From: an archaeon
Lineage (GTDB): Archaea > Nanobdellota > Nanobdellia > Pacearchaeales > JAPDKA01
NCBI GenBank assembly: GCA_029258825.1
Contig: JAPDKA010000001.1
Span: forward strand, 101,797-165,796
Direction: 5' to 3'
DNA: 64,000 bases
This document shows positions 6,569 to 49,141 of the stretch, one piece after another (position 1 is the first letter of the stretch; each line of letters begins with the position of its first letter). The position numbers were made by a program, and so were the translations under genes. A model generated the notes under the pieces. That model was not told where the DNA came from. It saw only the letters and a program-made list of their open reading frames with translations, and did not search any database.

Positions 6569-7063
6569 TTACAGCTTTAAAAGGAAATTTTCTATTTTTT
6601 GTCTAAAATTGGCAAGGTCATTCTCGTTCAAGTTTACTACAATATCCTCAAAAGAAATAATAAAAATCTTCGCTTCATTCAACATTTTTCTTATCTCATT
6701 CGCTCTCCCAATTTTGAGGTAGTATTGAGCATCAATTCTTTTTTCTTTGTGTTTCTCTATCATTTTTACTTTTTCTTCACCTAAAAGAAGTTTGGTAAGT
6801 AAAATAGAACATAAATGGTTTTCACATTTTAAACCTATTCTTGTAAGAAAAGAATACAAAGCATAATATTCAGCGTAGTAAATCATAACAGTTGTCCACA
6901 AAAAATCTCTTTGAGTTAACATAATTTCAGCACTTTTTAAACTAGATTTTGCTAATTGTAAATAAGAGCTTGCTATATTTTCGCTTGGTCTTGTTATTTT
7001 TATTTCCTTTTTTTTAAAACACCATTTAAGTTTATCTAAGTTAGCCCTGTTAGCTCTTTTCAT
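6569..7063 (-). CDS. HEPN domain protein
   Basis: YYAEYYAL, CENH, KRIDAQYY; overlaps the upstream MNT gene. Confidence 0.85.
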   Translation of the reverse strand: MKRANRANLDKLKWCFKKKEIKITRPSENIASSYLQLAKSSLKSAEIMLTQRDFLWTTVMIYYAEYYALYSFLTRIGLKCENHLCSILLTKLLLGEEKVKMIEKHKEKRIDAQYYLKIGRANEIRKMLNEAKIFIISFEDIVVNLNENDLANFRQKIENFLLKL

Positions 7064-7613
7064 AGTATTCCCAAAGTTTATTTACAAAGTATGAATGGTT
7101 GGTTAATATAACATGATTTTCTAATATTTCTTTTATTAGGGCCTGTCCCTCGCTAAGAAATTTTTCAAATTGTTTTTTTGTAATCTTAATTTGATGTATT
7201 TTATAGGGTAAGAGATAATAAGGAAGATCGCCATTGCCGATTATTAATAAATCCAGATCGCTATTAATGTCTGCTTTATATGTAGAAAAAGAACCAAAAA
7301 CAACTAAACAAGCATCTATCTTTTCTTTAAGAAATGACTTAAAGTGCTTGTATTTCTCAATAAAATTTATAGTTTTGTTTATTTCAGCTATGATTAAATA
7401 AAGTTTTGTTTTTATATTTTGAAGATTTAAAAAATAGTATTTGTTCTTGCCTTCCATCTTGGACTTAATTATTTTTTCTTTTTCAAGTTCATTAAGCAAT
7501 CGTTGTGTAGTGCGCAGTGGCAATCGTGATAAAGCAGAAATTTGTCTAAGATAATATTTTTCCTTAAAGTTACTTAGATATAATTCTAAAATTTTGTATC
7601 TTTTTTGATACAT
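7050..7613 (-). CDS. wHTH-minimal nucleotidyltransferase (MNT)
   Basis: N-terminal HTH, VFGSFS..ADINSDLDLLII; likely start ATG 7613, just downstream of a TATA box. Confidence 0.85.
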   Translation of the reverse strand: MYQKRYKILELYLSNFKEKYYLRQISALSRLPLRTTQRLLNELEKEKIIKSKMEGKNKYYFLNLQNIKTKLYLIIAEINKTINFIEKYKHFKSFLKEKIDACLVVFGSFSTYKADINSDLDLLIIGNGDLPYYLLPYKIHQIKITKKQFEKFLSEGQALIKEILENHVILTNHSYFVNKLWEYYEKS

Positions 7614-7623
7614 ATGTATCAAA
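7604..7623. promoter_or_regulatory. 20-bp perfect palindrome over the MNT start codon (putative operator)
   Basis: tttgatacat|atgtatcaaa, with a further half-site (tgatacat) immediately adjacent. Confidence 0.6.
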
Positions 7624-7710
7624 TATGATACATATTTAAAAACCTTTCGATATCTTTGGACCTTTCGATAAAACTTTAGAAAAACAATAAAACCAATTAA
7701 ACTTTTAAAA

Positions 7711-8451
7711 TTACAACTCAACTGCAAACCTTAATACAGGCACACTGGCATTAAGTGGCTTAACAAAAAACCATGCAGTATTGATTGTTGCATTTACTTC
7801 TTGGGTGATTGGTAGTATGCTAACATTAACTGCATAAGTTGTTGCAATTTCATCAAGACATTCAATGCATATATAGCCAGGATTTTCAGCATAGTTGTTA
7901 ATTATAGCATGACTTGCATTAATAAGATTATATAAGCTAAGATCGCTATAAACTTGAATTAGTTTTCTCGCTCTATACAATTGTTTGCTTAGGTGTAATC
8001 TGCACTGCATCATTGTTACTTGTTGCATTGTTTCAACCTTGTAACATTTAAGAGAAACCTTAAATCCAGAAATGCTATTGCTGCAGTTCTGGTTGCTATT
8101 AAAATACTGCAAAATAGCATTATCAACTGCTTGCAATTCTGGAATTACTGCAGTTGAATTGACATAGTATAATGCAACTGTGTGATTTGCATAACTAACA
8201 GAAACATTTTGAGGCACAACAAAATAGCCAGAACGCTTGGCTATTTCAATTATAGCTTTATCAAGAACTACAGCAGCACATTGCTTTTGCGAATCAACAA
8301 TATTGCGGACAGTTTCAGCATAATGCAGCGTTAAACGACGATAATAAAAAGAAAAGCTTATTCCTGCAACAATAACAATCAGAGCAATAATAACAAACAA
8401 TGCAAGCTGTGCTTGTTTTTGCATTTTTACTTTTCTACCTCTTTTTTTCAT
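7711..8451 (-). CDS. Surface protein with class III (pilin-like) signal peptide
   Basis: KQAQ-LALFVIIALIVIVAG N-terminus, Cys-containing ectodomain, many N-x-S/T sequons. Confidence 0.65.
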   Translation of the reverse strand: MKKRGRKVKMQKQAQLALFVIIALIVIVAGISFSFYYRRLTLHYAETVRNIVDSQKQCAAVVLDKAIIEIAKRSGYFVVPQNVSVSYANHTVALYYVNSTAVIPELQAVDNAILQYFNSNQNCSNSISGFKVSLKCYKVETMQQVTMMQCRLHLSKQLYRARKLIQVYSDLSLYNLINASHAIINNYAENPGYICIECLDEIATTYAVNVSILPITQEVNATINTAWFFVKPLNASVPVLRFAVEL

Positions 8452-8482
8452 CTTTAAATATCAAGCTTAGTTTAAAATACTT

Positions 8483-8818
8483 TTACTCAACTTTCGCGCC
8501 AACATCAATAGATGTGTCTGTAGTTAACAACACTATCTTGCTCTTATCAGCATTAACTGCTGCAAGAAGCATACCATCGCTTTTCACACCTCTAATTACT
8601 GCTGGCTCTAAATTTGTAAGCATAATGATGGTTTTGCCTAACAACTGTTCTTTAGCGTAATGCTGTTTTATTCCTGCAACAATCTGGCGTTGTTCATTGC
8701 CTAAATCGACTTTCAACACATAAAGTTTATCTGCGTTTGGATGATCAGCCACATCAATTATTTTTGCTACCCTTATGTCAAGTTTTTTCCATTCATCAAA
8801 GCTAATGCGTTTTTGCAT
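8483..8818 (-). CDS. tRNA-binding OB-fold protein (Trbp111 / stand-alone MetRS C-terminal domain)
   Basis: LDIRVAKI..HPNADKLYVLKVDLG..RQIVAGI..NLEPAVIRGVKSDGMLLAA. Confidence 0.9.
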   Translation of the reverse strand: MQKRISFDEWKKLDIRVAKIIDVADHPNADKLYVLKVDLGNEQRQIVAGIKQHYAKEQLLGKTIIMLTNLEPAVIRGVKSDGMLLAAVNADKSKIVLLTTDTSIDVGAKVE

Positions 8819-8904
8819 GATTTGACAAAGCTGTAGGCATTTTAAAATTTAACTATAGCTCAGTAAACGAAATGTTAATAAAGTAGAAATAGAAAATTTT
8901 ATTC

Positions 8905-11874
8905 ATGGTTTTTGAAAGATTGTTGCAAAAACTTAAAGAGGAAGTAAGTGATGAAGAAAAAGAGGAAATAGAAAGATTTGAGAGATATTTCTTAAATAGG
9001 CTTAGTGATAAGGAAAAGCAAGAATACGGGCATATATTTGAAGAGCTGTTTAAGGTTATGAGTGGGGAAGCACAAGCTGAGTTGGTTAGTAGGGCTGGAT
9101 ATATTGCTGAAGATAAATCTGTTGATAGAGCTATTGAGTATGTGAAGGCTATGAATGAGAATAGGGAAGTATTAGGGGAGTTGTTTAAGGTTATGAGTGG
9201 GGAAGCACAGGCTGGGTTGGTTGGTTGGGCTGGAGAGATTGCTAAAGATAAATCTGTTGATATGGCTATCAAGTATGTGAAGGCTATGAATGAGAATAGG
9301 GAAGTATTAGGGGAGTTGTTTAAGGTTATGAGCGGGGAAGCACAAGCTGAGTTGGTTTGTTGGGCTGGAAGTATTGCTGAAGATGAATCTGTTGATAGAG
9401 CTATTGAGTATGTGAAGGCTATGAATGAGAATAGGGAAGTGTTTAAGGTTATGAGTGGGGAAGCACAGGCTAAGTTGGTTGGTTGGGCTGGAAGTACTGC
9501 TAAATATGAATCTGTTGATAGGGTTATTGAGTATGTAAAGGCTATGAATGAGAATAGGGAAGTATTAGGGGAGTTGTTTAAGGTTATGAGTGGGGAAGCG
9601 CAAGCTGAGTTGGTTAGTAGGGCTGGAAGTATTGCTGAAGATAAATCTGTTGATAGAGCTATTGAGTATGTGAAGGCTATGAATGAGAATAGGGAAGTAT
9701 TAGGGGAGTTGTTTAAGGTTATGAGTGGGGAAGCACAGGCTGGGTTGGTTGGTGGGGCTGGATATATTGCTAAATATGAATCTGTTGATAGGGTTATTGG
9801 GTATGTAAAGGCTATGAATGAGAATAGGGAAGTATTAGGGGAGTTGTTTAAGGTTATGAGTGGGGAAGCGCAAGCTGAGTTGGTTGGTAGGGCTGGATAT
9901 ATTGCTAGATGGGAATCTGTTGATAGGGCTATTGAGTATGTGAAGGCTATGAATGAGAATAGAGAAGCATTAGGGGAGTTGTTTAAGGTTATGAGTGGGG
10001 AAGCACAGGTTGAGTTGGTTAGTAGGGCTGGAGAGATTGCTAAAGATAAATCTGTTGATATGGCTATCAAGTATGTGAAGGCTATGAATGAGAATAGGGA
10101 AGTGTTTAAGGTTATGAGTGGGAAAGCACAGGCTAAGTTGGTTGGTGGGGCTGGAAGTATTGCTGAAGATAAATCTGTTGATAGAGCTATTGAGTATGTG
10201 AAGGCTATGAATGAGAATAGGGAAGTGTTTAAGGTTATGGGTGGGGAAGCACAGGCTAAGTTGGTTGGTTGGGCTGGAAGTATTGCTGAATATGAATCTG
10301 TTGATAGAGCTATTGAGTATGTGAAGGCTATGAATGAGAATAGGGAAGTATTAGGGGAGTTGTTTAAGGTTATGAGTGGGGAAGCACAGGCTAAGTTGGT
10401 TAGTGGGGCTGGATATATTGCTAGAGATAAATCTGTTGATAAAGCCATTGGTTATATTAAACTATTCAAGAATATTACAAACAAAAAGATAAAGGAAAAG
10501 GATTTAAAAAGAATAGAAGGATTAACCAAAGAGGTTGATTTTTCTGCTAATGATTTGGAAAAGCTTGAAAAAGAAAAAGGGGATGTCTATGAAAAAGCAA
10601 GAAGGCTTGTTACTTATGCAAAACTAAAGCAAAATGGTATAGAAATAAGCAAGCCTTCTTTAAGCAAGGAATGGCAGCAGGAAGCTTATGAGAAAGGTTT
10701 AAGCTATGTAAGCCAAAAGTTTGGCATTGATAATCCTGAAGTTGTTGTTAAGGAAATTGATGATGTTTTGCAATTCACTTTAATTCCTGGTAAATATACT
10801 GAAGAGGTTGGAGAATTGTTTAATAATATAGAGAAAATTGAAAAAGAAAAGAGTAAGGAGTATAAACTTGGAAAGGTTTATCATAATAAAAAAATAGCTG
10901 CTGTAAAAACAGAAGCAAAACCAGAAGAGCTTGTTGATTATTTTGTTAAGGCAATGATTGGAAGGTGGGCAAAGATAAAGCCTACTGCTAAAGGGAAGTT
11001 AGGTGTTTACTTTGCTGGGGAAGGGGAAAAGAAAAGGGAAAGCATTAAGCTTGCTAGAGAATTGCTAAGCAGTTTTGAAGGGAGCAAAAAGTTGAAACAA
11101 GCTATGATTTATGTTAGGAGTTGTGAAAAGCCTGAAAAGATATTTAAGGATATTAAGCAGGATTATCAGAAATTAAAGCAAGGTGATAAGGAAGCTGGTT
11201 TAAAGATTTTAGAATATTTTCAGAAAAAGTTTGTTGAGCCTGGATTGCCTGAAAAAGTAGAGCCACTAAGTGATATTATTGATAGCATTAAGGGTTTGTA
11301 TGGGTTAAAAACAGAGGGTTATGTTGCTGAAACTATAGAGATGGAAAAGCCAGGAATTGATTTTTTATTTGATTCAAGCAAAACATCTTGCTGTGCTTTT
11401 ATGCCAAATGGTGCTAATAAAGAGGCAAGCCTTATTTATCTTGCTGATAGGGATGTTGGACTGCTTAAGTATAAGCTTGTTGGTTTTGATAATAGCAAGG
11501 AAGATGCTGGTGTTGCAATAATGGTCAAGTGTAAGGATAAAGATGGCAATAAAGTCTTGCTTGTTGATTCTGTTGAGTTTAACAGTGCTTTGAGGGATAG
11601 CATTAAAGGTTGGAGGGAAAAGTTTTATGATGCTATCCTTAGAGCTGCTAAGGATAGCAATGTTGATTATGTTGTGTTTAATGTTGATGTTGCCAATGCC
11701 AGTCCTCAAGCATTTAACAGAATGCTTGAAAGTAAAGGGGTAAAAAAGAAAGAAATTTATCTTGAAAAGCTTCATGAGTTGCCTCAAGATGTTGATGAAA
11801 CATACCTTGAGGCTTTTGGCGGGTGGGAAAAGCCAAAAGGGAAGGTGGAGGGATATATTGTTGAAGTAAAGTAA
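8905..11874 (+). CDS. Large helical tandem-repeat protein with C-terminal Cys-Cys alpha/beta domain
   Basis: 989 aa; 11 repeats at about aa 48-517; no signal peptide or TM; C-terminal TSCCAF...VLLVDSVEF...YLEAFGGW. Confidence 0.9.
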   Translation: MVFERLLQKLKEEVSDEEKEEIERFERYFLNRLSDKEKQEYGHIFEELFKVMSGEAQAELVSRAGYIAEDKSVDRAIEYVKAMNENREVLGELFKVMSGEAQAGLVGWAGEIAKDKSVDMAIKYVKAMNENREVLGELFKVMSGEAQAELVCWAGSIAEDESVDRAIEYVKAMNENREVFKVMSGEAQAKLVGWAGSTAKYESVDRVIEYVKAMNENREVLGELFKVMSGEAQAELVSRAGSIAEDKSVDRAIEYVKAMNENREVLGELFKVMSGEAQAGLVGGAGYIAKYESVDRVIGYVKAMNENREVLGELFKVMSGEAQAELVGRAGYIARWESVDRAIEYVKAMNENREALGELFKVMSGEAQVELVSRAGEIAKDKSVDMAIKYVKAMNENREVFKVMSGKAQAKLVGGAGSIAEDKSVDRAIEYVKAMNENREVFKVMGGEAQAKLVGWAGSIAEYESVDRAIEYVKAMNENREVLGELFKVMSGEAQAKLVSGAGYIARDKSVDKAIGYIKLFKNITNKKIKEKDLKRIEGLTKEVDFSANDLEKLEKEKGDVYEKARRLVTYAKLKQNGIEISKPSLSKEWQQEAYEKGLSYVSQKFGIDNPEVVVKEIDDVLQFTLIPGKYTEEVGELFNNIEKIEKEKSKEYKLGKVYHNKKIAAVKTEAKPEELVDYFVKAMIGRWAKIKPTAKGKLGVYFAGEGEKKRESIKLARELLSSFEGSKKLKQAMIYVRSCEKPEKIFKDIKQDYQKLKQGDKEAGLKILEYFQKKFVEPGLPEKVEPLSDIIDSIKGLYGLKTEGYVAETIEMEKPGIDFLFDSSKTSCCAFMPNGANKEASLIYLADRDVGLLKYKLVGFDNSKEDAGVAIMVKCKDKDGNKVLLVDSVEFNSALRDSIKGWREKFYDAILRAAKDSNVDYVVFNVDVANASPQAFNRMLESKGVKKKEIYLEKLHELPQDVDETYLEAFGGWEKPKGKVEGYIVEVK
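9043..10455 (+). repeat. Intragenic tandem repeat, 135-bp and 123-bp units, 11 copies
   Basis: Units begin at 9067, 9202, 9337, 9460, 9595, 9730, 9865, 10000, 10123, 10246 and 10381; units 3, 8 and 9 lack 12 bp (LGEL). Confidence 0.97.
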
Positions 11875-43257: not shown

Positions 43258-44175
43258 ATGTACAAAAAAGAGGTGTATTGGCCAAGAGTAATAAAGATAC
43301 CAAAACAAGAAGGCAAGTTGAATGAAGAAGAAAAATTACAGCACGAAATAGAACAATATATACATAAAGTTAAGCCGTTCGAAAAGCAAGAAATGCTTTA
43401 TAGTGTTTATCTTAACAACATCAATTATGCAAAAACAATAAGGCAAAAACAATTGTTGTTTAGCATCATCAAAGCAATGAACCTGATTGATCGCAAGCAT
43501 TTTGTTTTGCCTCAGATGAAAGACGTATGCTACAATGACATAGCATTACCTTTATGTGCAGGACAGACAATAAGCCAACCGACAACAGTTGCAAGAATGA
43601 TTCTGCTTTTTGAACACGAATTTAGCAAACAATCACTAAACAAAGCAAAATGCGAAATAAATAGTGTGCTTGAGGTAGGCACTGGCAGTGGGTGGAATAT
43701 CGCTTTGATAGCTTGCATTTTTGATCACTTGCAAAAGCAAAAGGCAAAACAAAATGATAGGCAAAAAAGCAAAGCAGGAAGTAAAAGCTTCACAAGTGTG
43801 GAAATTATAAAAGAAATAGCAGAACTTGCAAAATCGAACATAGCAAGAATACAGAAAAAATTAAGCAAAAGTAAAAAACAAAAACAGATTGCTGGTGCAT
43901 TACGCAAGATCAAAATCATAAATGCTGATGCTTTTGATAAAAACACTTCTGTCTGGGCAAGCAACTATGATAGAATTATGTTTACTGCAGGGATACACAA
44001 CAAGCAAATTGAAGCAAAAGCAAAAGAAATGGCAAAAAGATTGCTTAATGATGGTGGTATTGCCATATGCCCGCACACTTATGGGCCGCTTAAAATATGG
44101 ATAAAACATAACAACAAATTGTTTGAAGAAACTACAGCTGATGAATATATGTTTGTTCCACTTGTTAAAGTGTAA
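43258..44175 (+). CDS. pcm: Protein-L-isoaspartate O-methyltransferase
   Basis: IDRKHFV, GQTISQPTTVARM, VLEVGTGSGW, YDRIMFTAG, FVPLV; K/Q-rich insertions. Confidence 0.85.
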   Translation: MYKKEVYWPRVIKIPKQEGKLNEEEKLQHEIEQYIHKVKPFEKQEMLYSVYLNNINYAKTIRQKQLLFSIIKAMNLIDRKHFVLPQMKDVCYNDIALPLCAGQTISQPTTVARMILLFEHEFSKQSLNKAKCEINSVLEVGTGSGWNIALIACIFDHLQKQKAKQNDRQKSKAGSKSFTSVEIIKEIAELAKSNIARIQKKLSKSKKQKQIAGALRKIKIINADAFDKNTSVWASNYDRIMFTAGIHNKQIEAKAKEMAKRLLNDGGIAICPHTYGPLKIWIKHNNKLFEETTADEYMFVPLVKV

Positions 44176-44215: not shown

Positions 44216-45187
44216 TCATAAAATAGGGATAAATCTGCTGATTGGTTCTTCATGAATTATGAAGTAATCATAAGTTCTAATCGTGTTTCTAAAATTTTTC
44301 CTTAATTGTTCAATAATTGAAAAAAATTCTTCTCTTGTTTTTGTTAGAATTTCAAATTCTAGATCTGGCTTGCCTATGGGTTTGGTTATATAAATACAAT
44401 TTGGGATGGACTTTAAGGCTGTAATGAGGTTATCAAAGTTATCTTTTGTTAGGTTTTGAAGATAAAGTAAAACCTTAATATTTGAATAACCAAATTTTTT
44501 ATAATCAATCAATGTCCTAAACCCTACTATTATTTTTTTCTTAACCAAATTTTTTATCCTGTAACTTACCGCCCTGCCTGAAAGACCGAGCTCTTTACTC
44601 AGATTTTCATAACTCATTCTTGCATTTTTGGTTAAAAGCACAAGCAGTTTTTTGTCAACATCATCTAATTCATAAGTTTCAATTTTTCCACCTGTTTTAA
44701 ATTCTTGAAAGTTTCGTTTTAATAAAAATCTGTAAGGAAATTGCCATAAGTGTAAACCTATCGAAACTTCTTTTTCTAAGATGTATTTCCCATATTTGAA
44801 TACAAAATCGTCAATAAATTCCTCAAATTCTATCATGTTTCTTGCCCAATATCCCACTACTAGATCCCAAGAACCATAAAGAATGCCTAAATATGCTATT
44901 TTAGGATTCTCTTTAAGATATTTTAACATTTTTTCCTCGATTTCCTTTGTTATATTTTGAAATTTCAAGAGTAATCTGCAATAATAATAGCCGAGTTTTG
45001 CTGAATTTATAATGGCATAATACTGCTTTATTATCCCTTCCTTCTCGAGTTTTCTAATTCTGTAAAGAGCTACTTCTTTAGAAATTCTAACTTTTTTAGC
45101 TATTTTTGAAATAGGTTGTCTCGCATTGAAATCTAGTTCTGTGAGTATTTTTCTATCTTTTAAATCTAGTTTTCTTTTTTCATGCAT
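44216..45187 (-). CDS. Tandem Lrp/AsnC transcriptional regulator
   Basis: Two HTH-RAM units (LDLKDRKILTELDFNAR; LDDVDKKLLVLLTKNAR); divergent from the operon below. Confidence 0.92.
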   Translation of the reverse strand: MHEKRKLDLKDRKILTELDFNARQPISKIAKKVRISKEVALYRIRKLEKEGIIKQYYAIINSAKLGYYYCRLLLKFQNITKEIEEKMLKYLKENPKIAYLGILYGSWDLVVGYWARNMIEFEEFIDDFVFKYGKYILEKEVSIGLHLWQFPYRFLLKRNFQEFKTGGKIETYELDDVDKKLLVLLTKNARMSYENLSKELGLSGRAVSYRIKNLVKKKIIVGFRTLIDYKKFGYSNIKVLLYLQNLTKDNFDNLITALKSIPNCIYITKPIGKPDLEFEILTKTREEFFSIIEQLRKNFRNTIRTYDYFIIHEEPISRFIPIL

Positions 45188-45311
45188 GTTTAATCTTCAG
45201 AAAAAATGATATTTAAATTTTTCTATTCGTGAAAATTTTTTAAAATAAATTTTATAAATTTTCGCTGCTAATTATTACCATAGCTAAGTAGTAAAAATTC
45301 AAAATATAAAA

Positions 45312-46331
45312 ATGAATGCCAATGAATATTTCAAAATAATGGAAGAAACTGGAAAAGCTACATATAGAAGAATAGAAGATTATCTAGATAGAGATATAAA
45401 AGAAGAAGGGTTAAGAAAATTTATTGAAAATTTTATTGATGGTAGATTGCAAAACAAAAGAAGGTTAAGGTCTTTGCTTGTAAGAGGAGTTTATAATGCA
45501 GTAACAAGGGATGATGAAGAAAGAAATAAATGGAAGGAAAAGATATTAGATGTTTGTGCAGCATTTGAACTTTGGTGTATAGCAGATTACTTAACTAATG
45601 ATGTTTTTGATGACAAACTTGATAAATGTAAAAACAACATAGATAGAGATCCTAACTTGTTTTATATTGCTTCTACTGTAGTTAGAGAGATAGCAGAAAA
45701 TGCTTTAAGAGATGCTGCAAGAAAATTAAGGCCAGAAAAGGAAAAAGAGGTAATTGGGTTGTTCAGTAAACTCGTAGATTTTGCTTATCATCATCAATGG
45801 GCTGATTATACAATGAAATACAAAGGAGAAACACCAAAAGAGCTGGAAACAAAGTTAGATGAAATATTCAAAAAAAGATATGTAGATTATGAAGCAGGAA
45901 ATTGCTTTGGAAAAATGTGTGAGATTGCAGCAATATTGTTTGGAGCTAATGAAAATGAAAGAAAAGCACTTGCAGAATATGGAGATTCCTTTTCAATCTC
46001 TCTACAAATAGTGAATGATATTGCAGATATCGCTACTGGAGGCTATGATTTAAAAAACAAACTCCTAACATATCCTTTGGTTTTAACAATGGTAAGAACA
46101 GGAAAGAATGTTTATGGAATGAATGAAGAAGAGGTGAGGAAACTTTTTGTTTTATCTGGAGTGTTCGAGGAGTGCAGGAAAATAGCAGTTGAAATAGTAA
46201 GAAAAGCAAGGAAAAAGCTGCATATTTTTGAGAAGGAGAAAAGAGAACTACTTTCAACAATGTGGGTCTTTGCTTGGACAAATAAGTATTACCAAATCCT
46301 AAATAAAATAAAAAACCAAGAAAATGGCTGA
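45312..46331 (+). CDS. Divergent class I isoprenoid synthase / polyprenyl synthetase fold
   Basis: KRRLRS, CAAFEL..NDVFDD, LQIVNDIAD, DLKNKLLTYP. Confidence 0.8.
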   Translation: MNANEYFKIMEETGKATYRRIEDYLDRDIKEEGLRKFIENFIDGRLQNKRRLRSLLVRGVYNAVTRDDEERNKWKEKILDVCAAFELWCIADYLTNDVFDDKLDKCKNNIDRDPNLFYIASTVVREIAENALRDAARKLRPEKEKEVIGLFSKLVDFAYHHQWADYTMKYKGETPKELETKLDEIFKKRYVDYEAGNCFGKMCEIAAILFGANENERKALAEYGDSFSISLQIVNDIADIATGGYDLKNKLLTYPLVLTMVRTGKNVYGMNEEEVRKLFVLSGVFEECRKIAVEIVRKARKKLHIFEKEKRELLSTMWVFAWTNKYYQILNKIKNQENG

Positions 46332-47125
46332 ATGGTTTAAAGAATATTTTGGTTTGCAGTATATTATAGGGGATAACACAAAAGCTTTTGGATTTAATAG
46401 TTTGGAAGATAGGGTAGAGTATGAAGTAAACCAGATTATAGAGCTTGGAGAAGTACGATGGTATGAAAATTTTAGATGTTCCTTGTAGTTATGGAAAACA
46501 TGTAATAATGCTTGCCTCCAAGCATAATTGCGATATTTTTGGTATTGACATAAACCACATAGAGATTGATGTAGCAAGATATAGGGCTGAACATGAACTT
46601 GACGTTAATGAAAAACCACTAAAACTAAAGAAAAAGCCAAAATTTATGGCTGCTGACATGAGAAATTTTTCTGACATACTTAATAATTTTGATTTAATCT
46701 ATAATTGGTTCTGGAGTTTTGGTTATTTTGGTGATGAAGAAGATAAAAAAGTTTTAAAAGAGTTTTATAATGCTCTGAAGCCAAATGGCATTTTACTAAT
46801 CCATACAATCACAAAAGAAAATATTATGCCAGATTATATTACAGATTGGAAAAGAGAGATTTTGCCATTAAAAATTAAGGGAAAAGGGTATCCTGGAGGA
46901 ATCTTACATTTTACAAAGGTTTTCAATCCAGAAAAGAGCACATTGCATACAACATGGATAGTAATGCTAAATAATGGAATAATATTACCAGAACATCCTG
47001 TAGTTTCATCTGTCAGGATGTATAGCATAGATGAATACATCAGTATGCTAAAACAAACAGGATTCAGAAAAATCGAAGTTCATGATAGTTATTATCCAAT
47101 AACAATTTTTAAAGCAAGAAAATAA
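46324..47125 (+). pseudogene. Class I SAM methyltransferase split by a frameshift
   Basis: ATG 46324 overlaps the upstream stop and reads MAEWFKEYFG..EYEVNQIIE; the second frame reads KILDVPCSYGKH, GIDIN, ADMR, SFGYF, LKPNG. The shift lies at about 46442-46460. Confidence 0.8.
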
Positions 47126-47135
47126 CACAAACAAA

Positions 47136-47750
47136 ATGAAACAAAACAATTTCCAAATAAAAGGGTTATACGGAATAACATATCCTTATCCAGGAATCTC
47201 TATTTTAAAATCGATTGAAATAATGATCAAAAAAGGAGCAAGATTTATTCAGTTAAGAGAAAAACAATTAAGTGATAGAAAGTATTTGGAGCTGGCTAAA
47301 AAAGCTTTGAAGATTTGCAAAAAACATGGAGTTCAGTTAATAATAAATGATAGAGTTGGCGTGGCATTAACTTTGAATTTACCCATTCATGTAGGAAAAG
47401 ACGACTTAGGAGTTAAAGAAATAAAAAAAATTAAAAATATAAAAGTAGGATACAGCATAGCAAAGTTTGACGATATAAAAACAGAAGATGCAAAACATGC
47501 AGATTATTATGGGGTTGGCTCAATATTTTATTCTGCTCTTAAACCATCAAAAAATTATTTTGGAATAGATGGATTAAAAAAATTAAAAAAAGTAACTAAG
47601 AAGCCTATAGTAGCAATCGGCGGCTTTAACGAAAAAAATATAGACTCTGTTTTAAAACTAAAGCCAGATGCTGTTGGTATTATGTTTTACAAGTTTATCG
47701 AATTTCCGATATTAATAAAGAAAATAAAAGATTTTTATGAAGCAAAATGA
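47136..47750 (+). CDS. thiE: Thiamine-phosphate synthase homolog
   Basis: LYGIT, IQLREK, LIINDR, IHVGKDD, VGYS, ADYYGVG, PIVAIGG. Confidence 0.88.
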   Translation: MKQNNFQIKGLYGITYPYPGISILKSIEIMIKKGARFIQLREKQLSDRKYLELAKKALKICKKHGVQLIINDRVGVALTLNLPIHVGKDDLGVKEIKKIKNIKVGYSIAKFDDIKTEDAKHADYYGVGSIFYSALKPSKNYFGIDGLKKLKKVTKKPIVAIGGFNEKNIDSVLKLKPDAVGIMFYKFIEFPILIKKIKDFYEAK

Positions 47751-49141
47751 CAACACAACTTGAAAAGGCTAAAAAAGGAATAATAACTAAAGAAATTAAA
47801 AAAGCTGCAAGTAATGAAGAGATCGAATTTTATGAAACATCGTGGACAAAGGATAAAAATGAGTATGTGGCTTATCTTATTAAAAATGGTTGGAGTGTAA
47901 TTCCAGCAAACAAAGAGCATATAAAAAAAGGATTAGAACCTATTGTTATAGGGGATAAGCATTCTGTCTATATTGTAGGTTACAGTGAGGAGCAAATCGT
48001 TAAAAACATTTTGGATGGCTATGATATGGTTAGAGAAGGAGCTATAACAACAAAGATAAATGCAAATATTGGAATAAGTCCTGAGGCAAGCTGCCTTGAA
48101 GAAGAAATAAAGAAAATGGAAACTGCAATTAAAGCAGGAGCAGACACAATTATGGATTTAAGTGTTCATAATGATCCACACTTAATAGATCACATAAGAA
48201 AAGAACTAATACAAAGATGTAAAAAACCTTTTGGAACTGTACCAATATATCAGGCATATATAGAAGCACAAAATAAGGGAGAAGATTTGAATATAAAGAA
48301 TTACCTAAAAGTTTTCGAGAAGCATGCAAAAGATGGTGTTGATTTTACAACAGTTCATGCAGGAATAACAAGAAAAAGTTTGGGCTTGCTTAGAAGAAGG
48401 CTTATGCCTACTGTAAGCAGAGGAGGTGGCTTTATTTTAGAGTTTATGAAAAAAACGGGAAAGGAAAATTTTCTTTATGCGTATTTCGATGAAATTTTAG
48501 AAATAGCAAAGGAATATGATGTTACTTTAAGTTTGGGGGATGCTTTAAGACCTGGCTGTCTACAAGATGAAACAGATGAAGCTCAACTTTATGAATTAGA
48601 AATTCTTGGAGAGCTTGTAGAGAGAGCAAGAGAAAAAGGTGTCCAAGTAATGATAGAAGGGCCGGGCCATATTCCATTAAATAAAATACCCAAAAATATC
48701 TTACTTGAAAAATCGCTTTGTAAAGCTCCTTTTTACGTTTTAGGGCCTTTAGGAATAGATAATGCTGCTCCATTTGACCATATAGCTTCCGCAATAGGGG
48801 GTGCTTTAGCAGCTTACTGGGGAGCAGACTTTTTATGCTATGTTACTCCAGCAGAACATATAGGTTTGCCAAAATTAGAAGAAGTGAAACAAGGTGTTAT
48901 AGCAGCAAAGATTGCTGCAAGTATAGCAGATTACGCTTTAGGCAATAAAAAAGTTGTAAAACAAAGTAATGAAATGTCTATAGCAAGAGCACAATTTAAT
49001 TGGTCAAAAATGGCAGAGCTTTCTTTATTTCCGGAAGAATTCAAGAAAAGATTAAAAAAAGAAAAAACAAAAACCCCTCACCCTTGCAGTATGTGTAAAC
49101 ATTATTGTCCTTTAAAAAGAAAAGATCTTTTGGAAGAATAG
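47747..49141 (+). CDS. thiC: Phosphomethylpyrimidine synthase (radical SAM)
   Basis: TKINANIG, GADTIMDLS, GTVPIYQ, VSRGG, LSLGDALRPG, EGPGH, LCYVTPAEH, CSMCKHYC. Confidence 0.95.
   Translation: MTTQLEKAKKGIITKEIKKAASNEEIEFYETSWTKDKNEYVAYLIKNGWSVIPANKEHIKKGLEPIVIGDKHSVYIVGYSEEQIVKNILDGYDMVREGAITTKINANIGISPEASCLEEEIKKMETAIKAGADTIMDLSVHNDPHLIDHIRKELIQRCKKPFGTVPIYQAYIEAQNKGEDLNIKNYLKVFEKHAKDGVDFTTVHAGITRKSLGLLRRRLMPTVSRGGGFILEFMKKTGKENFLYAYFDEILEIAKEYDVTLSLGDALRPGCLQDETDEAQLYELEILGELVERAREKGVQVMIEGPGHIPLNKIPKNILLEKSLCKAPFYVLGPLGIDNAAPFDHIASAIGGALAAYWGADFLCYVTPAEHIGLPKLEEVKQGVIAAKIAASIADYALGNKKVVKQSNEMSIARAQFNWSKMAELSLFPEEFKKRLKKEKTKTPHPCSMCKHYCPLKRKDLLEE

Follow-up and report, generated by a model that had tools for sequence, protein, structure and literature searches.

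Why should a gene for vitamin B1 synthesis follow a gene for an isoprenoid-synthase fold in a genome-reduced archaeon? The question is raised by a locus at positions 44,216 to 49,141 of a 64,000-nucleotide stretch of contig JAPDKA010000001.1, referred to here at its full length as the window. In this locus, the gene for ThiC, the phosphomethylpyrimidine synthase, ends a run of closely spaced genes that begins with one for a non-canonical trans-isoprenyl-diphosphate-synthase-like (IPPS-like) protein, and a gene for a tandem Lrp/AsnC-type regulator points away from the run. Current opinion holds that the pathway of thiamine synthesis has been mapped in full and that DPANN archaea scavenge their cofactors.

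The Lrp, IPPS-like and ThiC genes are the core of a rare accessory cassette of a few Woesearchaeales, which are DPANN archaea from metagenomes of hydrothermal-vent type. Judged from gene context, the cassette may be a module of the pyrimidine branch of thiamine synthesis, in which the IPPS-fold enzyme would process the product of ThiC, hydroxymethylpyrimidine phosphate (HMP-P). We put the probability of this reading at roughly one in three. Two findings make it plausible that the IPPS-fold gene and ThiC are functionally linked: the combination recurs, and the rest of the thiamine pathway was not found elsewhere in the genome.

The IPPS-like and ThiC genes recur together

Among 5.8 billion proteins, the core IPPS-like family counts 10 relatives, at 50-63% identity. 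A profile run over 1.84 billion representatives recovers five IPPS-like clusters (formed at 50% identity) that score at least 327 bits, after which the scores drop to 136 bits. Searches of species genomes in GTDB and of metagenomes from JGI give nine distinct loci, the window included (L002 and L007 are the same sequence), and the gene content of these loci was scored by tblastn and Pfam.

The arrangement around the IPPS-like gene is conserved on both sides, to different degrees. A tandem-Lrp gene lies divergently upstream in all seven loci where this side is visible (the window, L001, L002, L008, L009, L012 and the edge of L011). ThiC lies downstream in four of the six loci with enough DNA (the window, L010, L011 and L012), at IPPS-like identities down to 34-39%; none was found downstream in L002 or L006. 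The gene set, which an earlier note on this DNA had described from the present contig, is thus not unique to it. Pairwise identities of the two proteins co-vary: 56% for IPPS-like and 73% for ThiC between the window and a 4805-nucleotide contig (P0007 and P0017), 62% and 80% between L011 and L012, and 39% and 58% between the window and L011. The genes that flank the cassette vary between loci.

Two protein pairs come from short contigs. IPPS-like P0007 and ThiC P0017 each lie on one contig of 4805 nucleotides, and IPPS-like P0008, identical to the L008 protein, and the ThiE-type protein P0013 each lie on one of 5330 nucleotides. The equal sizes suggest that the members of each pair lie together, in the layout of the cassette.

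Among 401 sampled genomes of the order, ThiC occurs in six and the core IPPS-like family in one, with two further relatives at 26% identity. Both genes are rare, and their repeated adjacency is therefore far from chance.

The remaining loci differ in detail. In L010, two open reading frames (ORFs) separate the IPPS-like gene from ThiC, neither of which falls into a Pfam family or resembles the methyltransferase of the window. L001 ends inside the IPPS-like gene. In L002, tblastn detects pieces of a further IPPS-like gene (residues 166-202 and 306-333) as three short fragments at 6720-6915, just past the 3' end of the Lrp gene. These fragments suggest a degraded duplicate, which would point to a past rearrangement in this locus without ThiC.

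The linked proteins score as genuine ThiC

By their scores with curated models, the linked proteins are genuine ThiC and not BzaB; an assignment to the Bza group, with which the earlier note had asked for a comparison, does not hold for any of them. The window protein scores 524 bits with Pfam ThiC_Rad_SAM and passes both curated ThiC models (NF009895, 521.1 against a cut-off of 410; TIGR00190, 500.1 against 460). The four other linked ThiCs pass as well, with 542-632 and 522-607, respectively, making five of five. All fail the BzaB model TIGR04386 (cut-off 700), the window protein with 408 and the others with 424-507.

The window ThiC matches the structure of Arabidopsis thaliana ThiC (4s25) at E = 6e-90, with the plant and Caulobacter structures at E values of about 1e-89. 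Every column that is invariant in an alignment of 30 ThiC sequences is kept, including C447, C450 and C454 of the CSMCxxxC motif. In the window protein, as in other short ThiCs, the spacing of this cysteine motif lacks one residue relative to plant ThiC. As compared to those short ThiCs, the window protein carries two N-terminal insertions, one of 10 residues at about 27-37 and one of 28 residues at about 72-100. Its only close relative, P0017 (70% identical), likewise has two insertions there, a full-length one at the first site and one of about 14 residues at the second. In a FastTree phylogeny of 86 ThiCs, which carries SH-like supports only and has a long branch as its outgroup, the window protein pairs with P0017 on a longer branch.

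ThiC also occurs alone in three other Woesearchaeales, G020 (locus L024), G055 (L025) and G029 (L026). There, the gene lies among housekeeping genes (ArgRS, a secretion ATPase, FtsZ and adenylosuccinate lyase), and the searches of these three genomes returned no ThiE and no convincing ThiD.

The IPPS-like protein has a prenyl-synthase fold with altered motifs

The IPPS-like protein scores 29.2 bits with Pfam polyprenyl_synt (PF00348), barely above the cut-off of 27. Its AlphaFold 2 model has a mean predicted local distance difference test score (pLDDT) of 93.3 and aligns with poly- and geranylgeranyl-diphosphate synthases at Foldseek template-modelling (TM) scores of 0.66-0.78. Superposition by VIA-align on octaprenyl, decaprenyl and geranylgeranyl diphosphate synthases gives Z scores of 29-31, with a root-mean-square deviation (rmsd) of 2.3-3.0 over 284-304 residues. 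The best superpositions are those on 4jyx (Z 31.3, rmsd 2.5 over 299 residues) and on the geranylgeranyl diphosphate synthase of Pyrococcus horikoshii (Z 30.8).

In a profile alignment with PDB sequences, both DDxxD motifs read NDxxD: N96-D97-V-F-D100 and N235-D236-I-A-D239. Both of these asparagines are invariant in 12 sequences of the family, as is D92, four residues before the first motif, at a position where prenyl synthases presumably carry their chain-length residues. The region-IV lysine of the GK(S/T) motif aligns to glutamate, glutamine or arginine. In region I, a single arginine is invariant, and the region-III Q..D and post-SARM D..N..P motifs can be aligned. In all, about 42 invariant residues are kept in 12 sequences whose identity to the window protein is only 38-62%. 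An ordinary chain-elongating synthase is unlikely, given the altered motifs, D92 and a genome in which HMG-CoA reductase, UbiA and a second polyprenyl synthase were not found.

The possibility that the IPPS-like protein replaces a housekeeping geranylgeranyl diphosphate synthase was considered and rejected. A polyprenyl synthase of any kind occurs in only 48 of the 401 genomes, and G401, the genome that holds L002, carries the IPPS-like gene in addition to a canonical synthase. A search of the ESM Atlas returned generic polyprenyl-synthase clusters only.

About 130 clusters (E ≤ 1e-10) make up a wider family with N-x-x-F-D, NDxxD and an insert after the second motif. Remote IPPS-like genes (26% identical) with NDxxD as their second motif lie in L016 (G051, 7538-9763) and L014 (G120). 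Both directly follow the gene of an HTH_10 regulator, and in G051 a NUDIX hydrolase gene comes directly after. No ThiC lies beside these two examined members of the wider family.

Thiamine and isoprenoid genes in the rest of the genome

The genome comprises 777 kb in 10 contigs and is an estimated 92.6% complete; its proteins have their closest named relatives in the Woesearchaeota. All genome-wide absences given here rest on whole-genome profile searches at that completeness. ThiD, ThiN, ThiG, ThiM and TPK were not found, nor was Thi4, for which the only match is a 19-bit one to an FAD motif. The thiD, thiN and thi4 genes that the earlier note had thought to look for outside the cluster were thus not found, and neither was the rest of the thiamine pathway. 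HMG-CoA reductase, a UbiA prenyltransferase and a second polyprenyl synthase were not found (other mevalonate-pathway genes were not searched), and neither were PurE and a transketolase-type pyrimidine-binding domain. Elsewhere in the family, ThiD (PF08543) has no match in G401, and in G402, the genome of L001, the two matches resemble kinases and are weak (29.9 and 24.4 bits).

As to purM, which the earlier note had also listed for a check of the genome, the answer is a partial one. The sole gene of the AIRS superfamily encodes a short PurM-like protein of 264 residues, which scores 129 bits against a cut-off of 236 and 28-36 bits with ThiL models. It lies outside the window at G000:C2:176467-177069 (L005:1129-1923, minus strand), about 27 kb from ThiC. 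This lone protein might supply aminoimidazole ribotide (AIR) or act as a ThiL-like kinase. PurM-like genes occur in four of the six ThiC-bearing genomes of the order and in 50 of the 395 others (Fisher p = 0.004, for genomes that are related and not independent).

The genome also encodes a two-subunit (alpha and beta) pyruvate/2-oxoacid:ferredoxin oxidoreductase (POR_N, 155 bits; TPP_enzyme_C, 93 bits), and it therefore needs thiamine diphosphate (TPP).

ThiE and the methyltransferase are optional members

ThiE is an optional member of the cassette. No match to it was found at any other locus of the cassette, which limits it to the sub-lineage of the window, and the sole close homologue among 5.8 billion proteins is P0013 (78%). 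The window protein scores 144 bits with Pfam TMP-TENI (cut-off 27) and stays under the cut-off of TIGR00693 (134.9 against 145.1); P0013 scores 133.8 with the same model. The AlphaFold 2 model (pLDDT 90.4) has eight strands and finds its best structural match in Pyrococcus furiosus ThiE (1xi3, TM 0.85).

Analysis of the aligned residues separates two sites. Q39, R41, K43, N71, D72, D90, S107 and K136 are the equivalents of Bacillus subtilis Q57, R59, K61, N92, D93, D112, S130 and K159, which we take to bind hydroxymethylpyrimidine diphosphate (HMP-PP) and Mg; all are kept. The thiazole-phosphate site presumably comprises B. subtilis T156, T158, G188 and I208/S209. Here, S133, L135 and G163 stand at the positions of T156, T158 and G188, and the segment after strand 8 (IMF-YKF) is six residues shorter. 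One ordinary-looking relative is likewise without the second threonine.

The methyltransferase is also an optional member, and it is decaying. It follows the IPPS-like gene in five of the eight assessable loci (the window, L006, L008, L009 and L012) and is absent from L002, L010 and L011. Three of these five genes are damaged: by a frameshift in the window, by a different, 1-nucleotide deletion in L008, and by breakage into pieces in L006. Only the L012 gene is intact (266 residues), and that of L009 is in frame up to the end of its contig.

In the window, the frame that opens at ATG 46324 closes at the TAG at 46486-46488, and the Rossmann domain lies in the next frame, where the first ATG directly precedes S-adenosylmethionine (SAM) motif I. 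Alignment of the DNA with the in-frame L009 and L012 genes places a 2-nucleotide deletion between 46458 and 46459. The methyltransferase that had been proposed for this position is present, but not as a single ORF. Identity to the intact L012 enzyme is 56% for the N-terminal fragment, matched to the N-terminus of that enzyme, and 59% for the main body. A 414-nucleotide contig from run X2, an independent 2018 vent metagenome of another study, spans 46149-46562 with 0 differences. The frameshift is therefore a property of the organism and not a slip of a single assembly. Programmed frameshifting was considered and is unlikely, as L008 is broken elsewhere and L009 and L012 are in frame.

By Pfam, the methyltransferase scores 51.8 bits with Methyltransf_25 and 34 bits with CMAS. 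Its relatives are not informative. Among solved structures, the best matches, of 37-41 bits, are to ToxA, the methyltransferase of toxoflavin, and to a methyltransferase from P. horikoshii whose role is not known; the match to ToxA (37 bits, E = 2e-8) is weak.

The Lrp regulator and the divergent promoter region

The position of the tandem Lrp gene indicates that its product probably controls the divergent promoter. The Pfam HTH_AsnC-type domain matches in two stretches, with 84.5 bits (E = 4e-24), and HTH_24 scores 88 bits; the AsnC_trans_reg (RAM) domain is weak, at 23.2 bits under a cut-off of 25. The NCBIfam equivalog models for AsnC and LrpA align end to end with each half of the protein, below their cut-offs. 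A homologue that is 56-68% identical stands at the same position in L001, L002, L009 and L012, and partial copies are present in L008 and L011. Assignment of the protein as an enzyme of the siroheme-decarboxylase type (AhbA/B) was rejected: the corresponding models reach 48 and 37 bits, over the helix-turn-helix (HTH) domain only, against 79-91 bits for the Lrp/AsnC models.

The intergenic region is AT-rich. In an alignment of six loci, it contains two TATA-like boxes with invariant columns around TTTAT(A), an arrangement that would fit two divergent promoters controlled by the Lrp protein. Several imperfect palindromes are also present; in DNA of about 80% A+T these may be chance, and they are not used as evidence.

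At position 45247, within the same region, a variant lacking two letters occurs among the contigs of both run X1 and run X2. This may be a strain variant, or it may stem from contigs of other organisms on low-complexity DNA.

Layout of the locus and neighbouring features

The features of the locus are collected in Table 1. The gene positions and spacing given in the earlier note agree with the ORF listing: the start of the methyltransferase overlaps the IPPS-like stop by 8 nucleotides (46324-46331), a 10-nucleotide gap separates the methyltransferase from ThiE (47126-47135), and ThiE and ThiC overlap by 4 nucleotides (47747-47750). The Lrp gene is tandem and divergent from the operon, as had been described. 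Equally, thiD, a thiazole synthase, thiM and thiL are missing from the cluster, as had been seen, and none of them turned up in the searches of the 777-kb genome. What had been called a non-native codon style proves to be native. For synonymous-codon likelihood, the four genes rank at the 90th-96th percentile, with z scores of +0.9 to +1.3 that mark above-average typicality in a model built from 452 ORFs of the genome; the z scores for G+C content at third codon positions are -0.6 to -1.1.

Table 1. Coordinates of the cassette and its regulator, in positions of the window.
Feature	Position	Strand	Length and basis
Tandem (two-repeat) Lrp/AsnC-type transcription regulator	44216..45187	-	323 aa; Pfam HTH_AsnC-type x2
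Shared divergent intergenic (putative promoter) region	45188..45311	.	six-locus alignment
IPPS-like: non-canonical trans-isoprenyl-diphosphate-synthase-fold protein	45312..46331	+	339 aa; Pfam polyprenyl_synt
Class I methyltransferase, N-terminal fragment	46324..46488	+	54 codons; sequence reading
Class I methyltransferase, main body, +1 frame	46445..47125 (first ATG 46463)	+	Pfam Methyltransf_25
Divergent ThiE-type thiamine-phosphate-synthase-fold protein	47136..47750	+	204 aa; Pfam TMP-TENI
ThiC (phosphomethylpyrimidine synthase)	47747..49141	+	464 aa; Pfam ThiC_Rad_SAM

At gathering thresholds, Rfam finds only four tRNAs in the 64-kb window, and no TPP riboswitch or other family. Next to the Lrp gene, at 43258-44175 (plus strand), lies a gene for a PCMT-family methyltransferase that is unusually long, with 305 residues and a Pfam match over residues 69-304; a PCMT of normal length also lies about 1.1 kb past ThiC in L011. 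Farther away, at 8905-11874 (plus strand), the first ~480 residues of a 989-residue ORF consist of about a dozen tandem units of ~40 residues (ELFKVMSGEAQA...VKAMNENREVLG). The GC skew of the DNA of this repeat ORF is extreme, up to +0.70. A 531-residue ORF that overlaps it on the opposite strand is probably its shadow.

A possible role in the pyrimidine branch

If the cassette is a pyrimidine-branch module, its reactions would involve: conversion of AIR to HMP-P by ThiC, as expected from family membership; handling of HMP-P by the IPPS-fold enzyme, through the metal-assisted ionisation chemistry of its fold; and, where ThiE is present, coupling of the activated pyrimidine to a scavenged acceptor. 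The chemistry of the IPPS fold, ionisation of an allylic or benzylic diphosphate, is of the same kind as that of ThiE on HMP-PP. Gene linkage, the altered motifs and the missing genes suggest that the IPPS-fold step would be an activation or an alkyl transfer, as carried out elsewhere by ThiD plus ThiE or ThiN. Recurrence of the cassette, co-divergence of its two core proteins, a canonical ThiC, the close spacing of the genes and the need of the genome for TPP also speak for such a module. The product may serve the TPP-dependent pyruvate:ferredoxin oxidoreductase or go to a host in exchange.

A narrower form of this proposal is rather doubtful. In it, the NDxxD-type IPPS-fold protein would be a new thiamine-pyrimidine enzyme that ionises HMP-P or HMP-PP in the way that allylic diphosphates are ionised by prenyl synthases. 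Ionisation would be followed either by transfer of the pyrimidinyl-methyl group to an acceptor, making the protein a third, non-homologous thiamine-phosphate synthase, or by phosphate-diphosphate exchange, making it an ATP-independent bypass of ThiD.

Several observations weigh against a pyrimidine module. We know of no IPPS-fold enzyme that uses a pyrimidine phosphate or substitutes for a kinase, and literature searches returned none. The genome has no evident source of AIR, as the searches gave no PurL-type second AIRS protein, no PurE and only the short PurM-like gene. In L002, the Lrp/IPPS-like pair stands without ThiC downstream, and neither G401 nor G402, genomes whose completeness is not established, gave a ThiC or ThiE match. 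The lone ThiCs of three other Woesearchaeales have no IPPS-like partner; in the ThiC tree, two of them (from G020 and G029) group with the L010-L012 proteins at 100% support. Finally, ThiE, ThiC and the methyltransferase of the sub-lineage of the window are all fast-evolving or damaged, which would also fit decay.

Some of these observations suit the main alternative, only slightly less probable than the pyrimidine module, in which the genes are co-located but biochemically unrelated. ThiC, with or without ThiE, would then be a thiamine remnant or a maker of HMP-P or HMP for exchange with the host or community, and the IPPS-fold protein would act on other diphosphates, for example a host-derived isoprenoid; a shared Lrp promoter or a mobile cassette would account for the proximity. 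The isolated pair in L002, the lack of a ThiC match in G401 and the lone ThiCs favor such a separation, as do the optional status of the methyltransferase and ThiE and the wider family of ~130 clusters with similar motifs, of which the two examined loci are without ThiC. Isoprenoid substrates are, in addition, available in G401, which carries genes for HMG-CoA reductase and a canonical polyprenyl synthase (234 bits), as well as three UbiA genes. However, ThiC was found in only 6 of 401 genomes and still follows the IPPS-like gene, itself just as rare, in 4 of 6 assessable loci, between differing flanks and with co-divergence down to 34-39% IPPS-like identity, and the genome of the window yielded neither a pathway to isoprenoid precursors nor any prenyl acceptor enzyme. 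Improbable, by comparison, is the product proposed in the earlier note, a prenylated and/or methylated aminopyrimidine or an antivitamin-like thiamine analogue. Some observations do favor it: the gene set turns up repeatedly, and the usual partners of the pathway were not found. ThiE differs at the presumed thiazole-phosphate site (T158 to L, with a shorter loop after strand 8), and the methyltransferase weakly resembles the toxoflavin N-methyltransferase ToxA. Other findings weaken it. The methyltransferase is frameshifted in two metagenomes and damaged or absent at most other loci, no source of isopentenyl or dimethylallyl diphosphate was found in the genome, and ThiE, confined to this sub-lineage, is absent from the other three ThiC-linked loci. 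A symbiont-type genome of 777 kb with one TPP enzyme would more plainly need the cofactor itself.

There is likewise little to be said for a decaying relic, that is, an imported and once-functional thiamine cassette that is under loss and has no present function as a whole. Such a history would explain a methyltransferase that is broken in three of the five loci having it, the leftover of another IPPS-like copy next to the Lrp gene of L002, the unusual insertions and long branch of the window ThiC, a ThiE under its curated cut-off, and the missing partner enzymes. Against it, the IPPS-like, ThiE and ThiC frames are open and full-length, and invariant residues are kept both in ThiC (columns of 30 sequences) and in the IPPS-like protein (~42). 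The models of the IPPS-like and ThiE proteins reach pLDDT values of at least 90, and the same sequence is present in the metagenomes of two studies.

Significance and comparison with known systems

If the two core proteins cooperate in a pyrimidine-branch module, a new reaction would be added to a very well studied fold, and the cassette would hold a replacement for a missing step in vitamin B1 synthesis or yield a new pyrimidine metabolite that passes between symbiont and host. Were the IPPS-fold protein a new pyrimidine enzyme, a cassette of two to three genes would supply the pyrimidine branch in genome-reduced archaea. If the link is positional only, what is left is a set of lone ThiC genes in a few Woesearchaeales, of modest interest. 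The IPPS-like family is tiny and its proteins are small with confident folds, so the question is directly testable. No published cluster of ThiC with a polyprenyl-synthase-like gene was found in open-access texts, taken without their supplements. One paper simply names ThiC as one of the cofactor genes of DPANN archaea (PMC8407392).

The cassette resembles the canonical branch of ThiC, ThiD and ThiE or ThiN in having a ThiC that is true by its models and an overlapping ThiE-fold gene (4 nucleotides) that keeps the presumed HMP-PP residues. In contrast to that branch, the genome of the cassette yielded no ThiD, ThiN, thiazole synthase, ThiM, TPK or ThiL. The constant partner of ThiC is instead an IPPS-fold gene, which is foreign to the known pathway, and ThiE is lacking at the other linked loci. 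With the trans-isoprenyl diphosphate synthases (PF00348), the IPPS-like protein shares the fold over its whole chain, as well as the alignable region-III and post-SARM motifs. It differs from them in reading NDxxD twice, in the loss of the region-IV lysine, in a Pfam score of 29.2 against a cut-off of 27, and in a genome where no precursor pathway was found.

The bza operon for benzimidazole lower ligands, which has the 5-hydroxybenzimidazole synthases BzaF or BzaA/BzaB with the methyltransferase BzaC, resembles the cassette in placing a radical-SAM gene of the ThiC family near a SAM methyltransferase. The two differ in that the cassette ThiCs reach 408-507 on the BzaB model (cut-off 700), that the cluster has no CobT or B12-radical-SAM genes, and that its methyltransferase is of the Methyltransf_25 type and decaying. 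The cluster BcmABCD for the antivitamin bacimethrin is a modified hydroxymethylpyrimidine pathway that includes a methyltransferase, and ThiC is not part of it. No thymidylate-synthase-like, glycosyl-transfer or thiaminase I protein is among the four genes of the cassette.

Pairs of a methyltransferase and a terpene or prenyl synthase are known from the geranyl diphosphate C-methyltransferase and 2-methylisoborneol synthase. They would match the cassette in that a class I methyltransferase with weak similarity to CMAS (34 bits) directly follows a gene of the isoprenoid-synthase fold; the cassette differs in having ThiC, a broken or dispensable methyltransferase and no evident isoprenoid supply. 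ThiN is a non-homologous replacement of ThiE in archaea, and it acts by a dissociative alkyl transfer from a diphosphate, akin to prenyl transfer. By analogy, ThiN may serve as the precedent for an unrelated fold taking a step of the thiamine pathway; here, no ThiN domain is present, and the candidate for such a step would be the IPPS fold.

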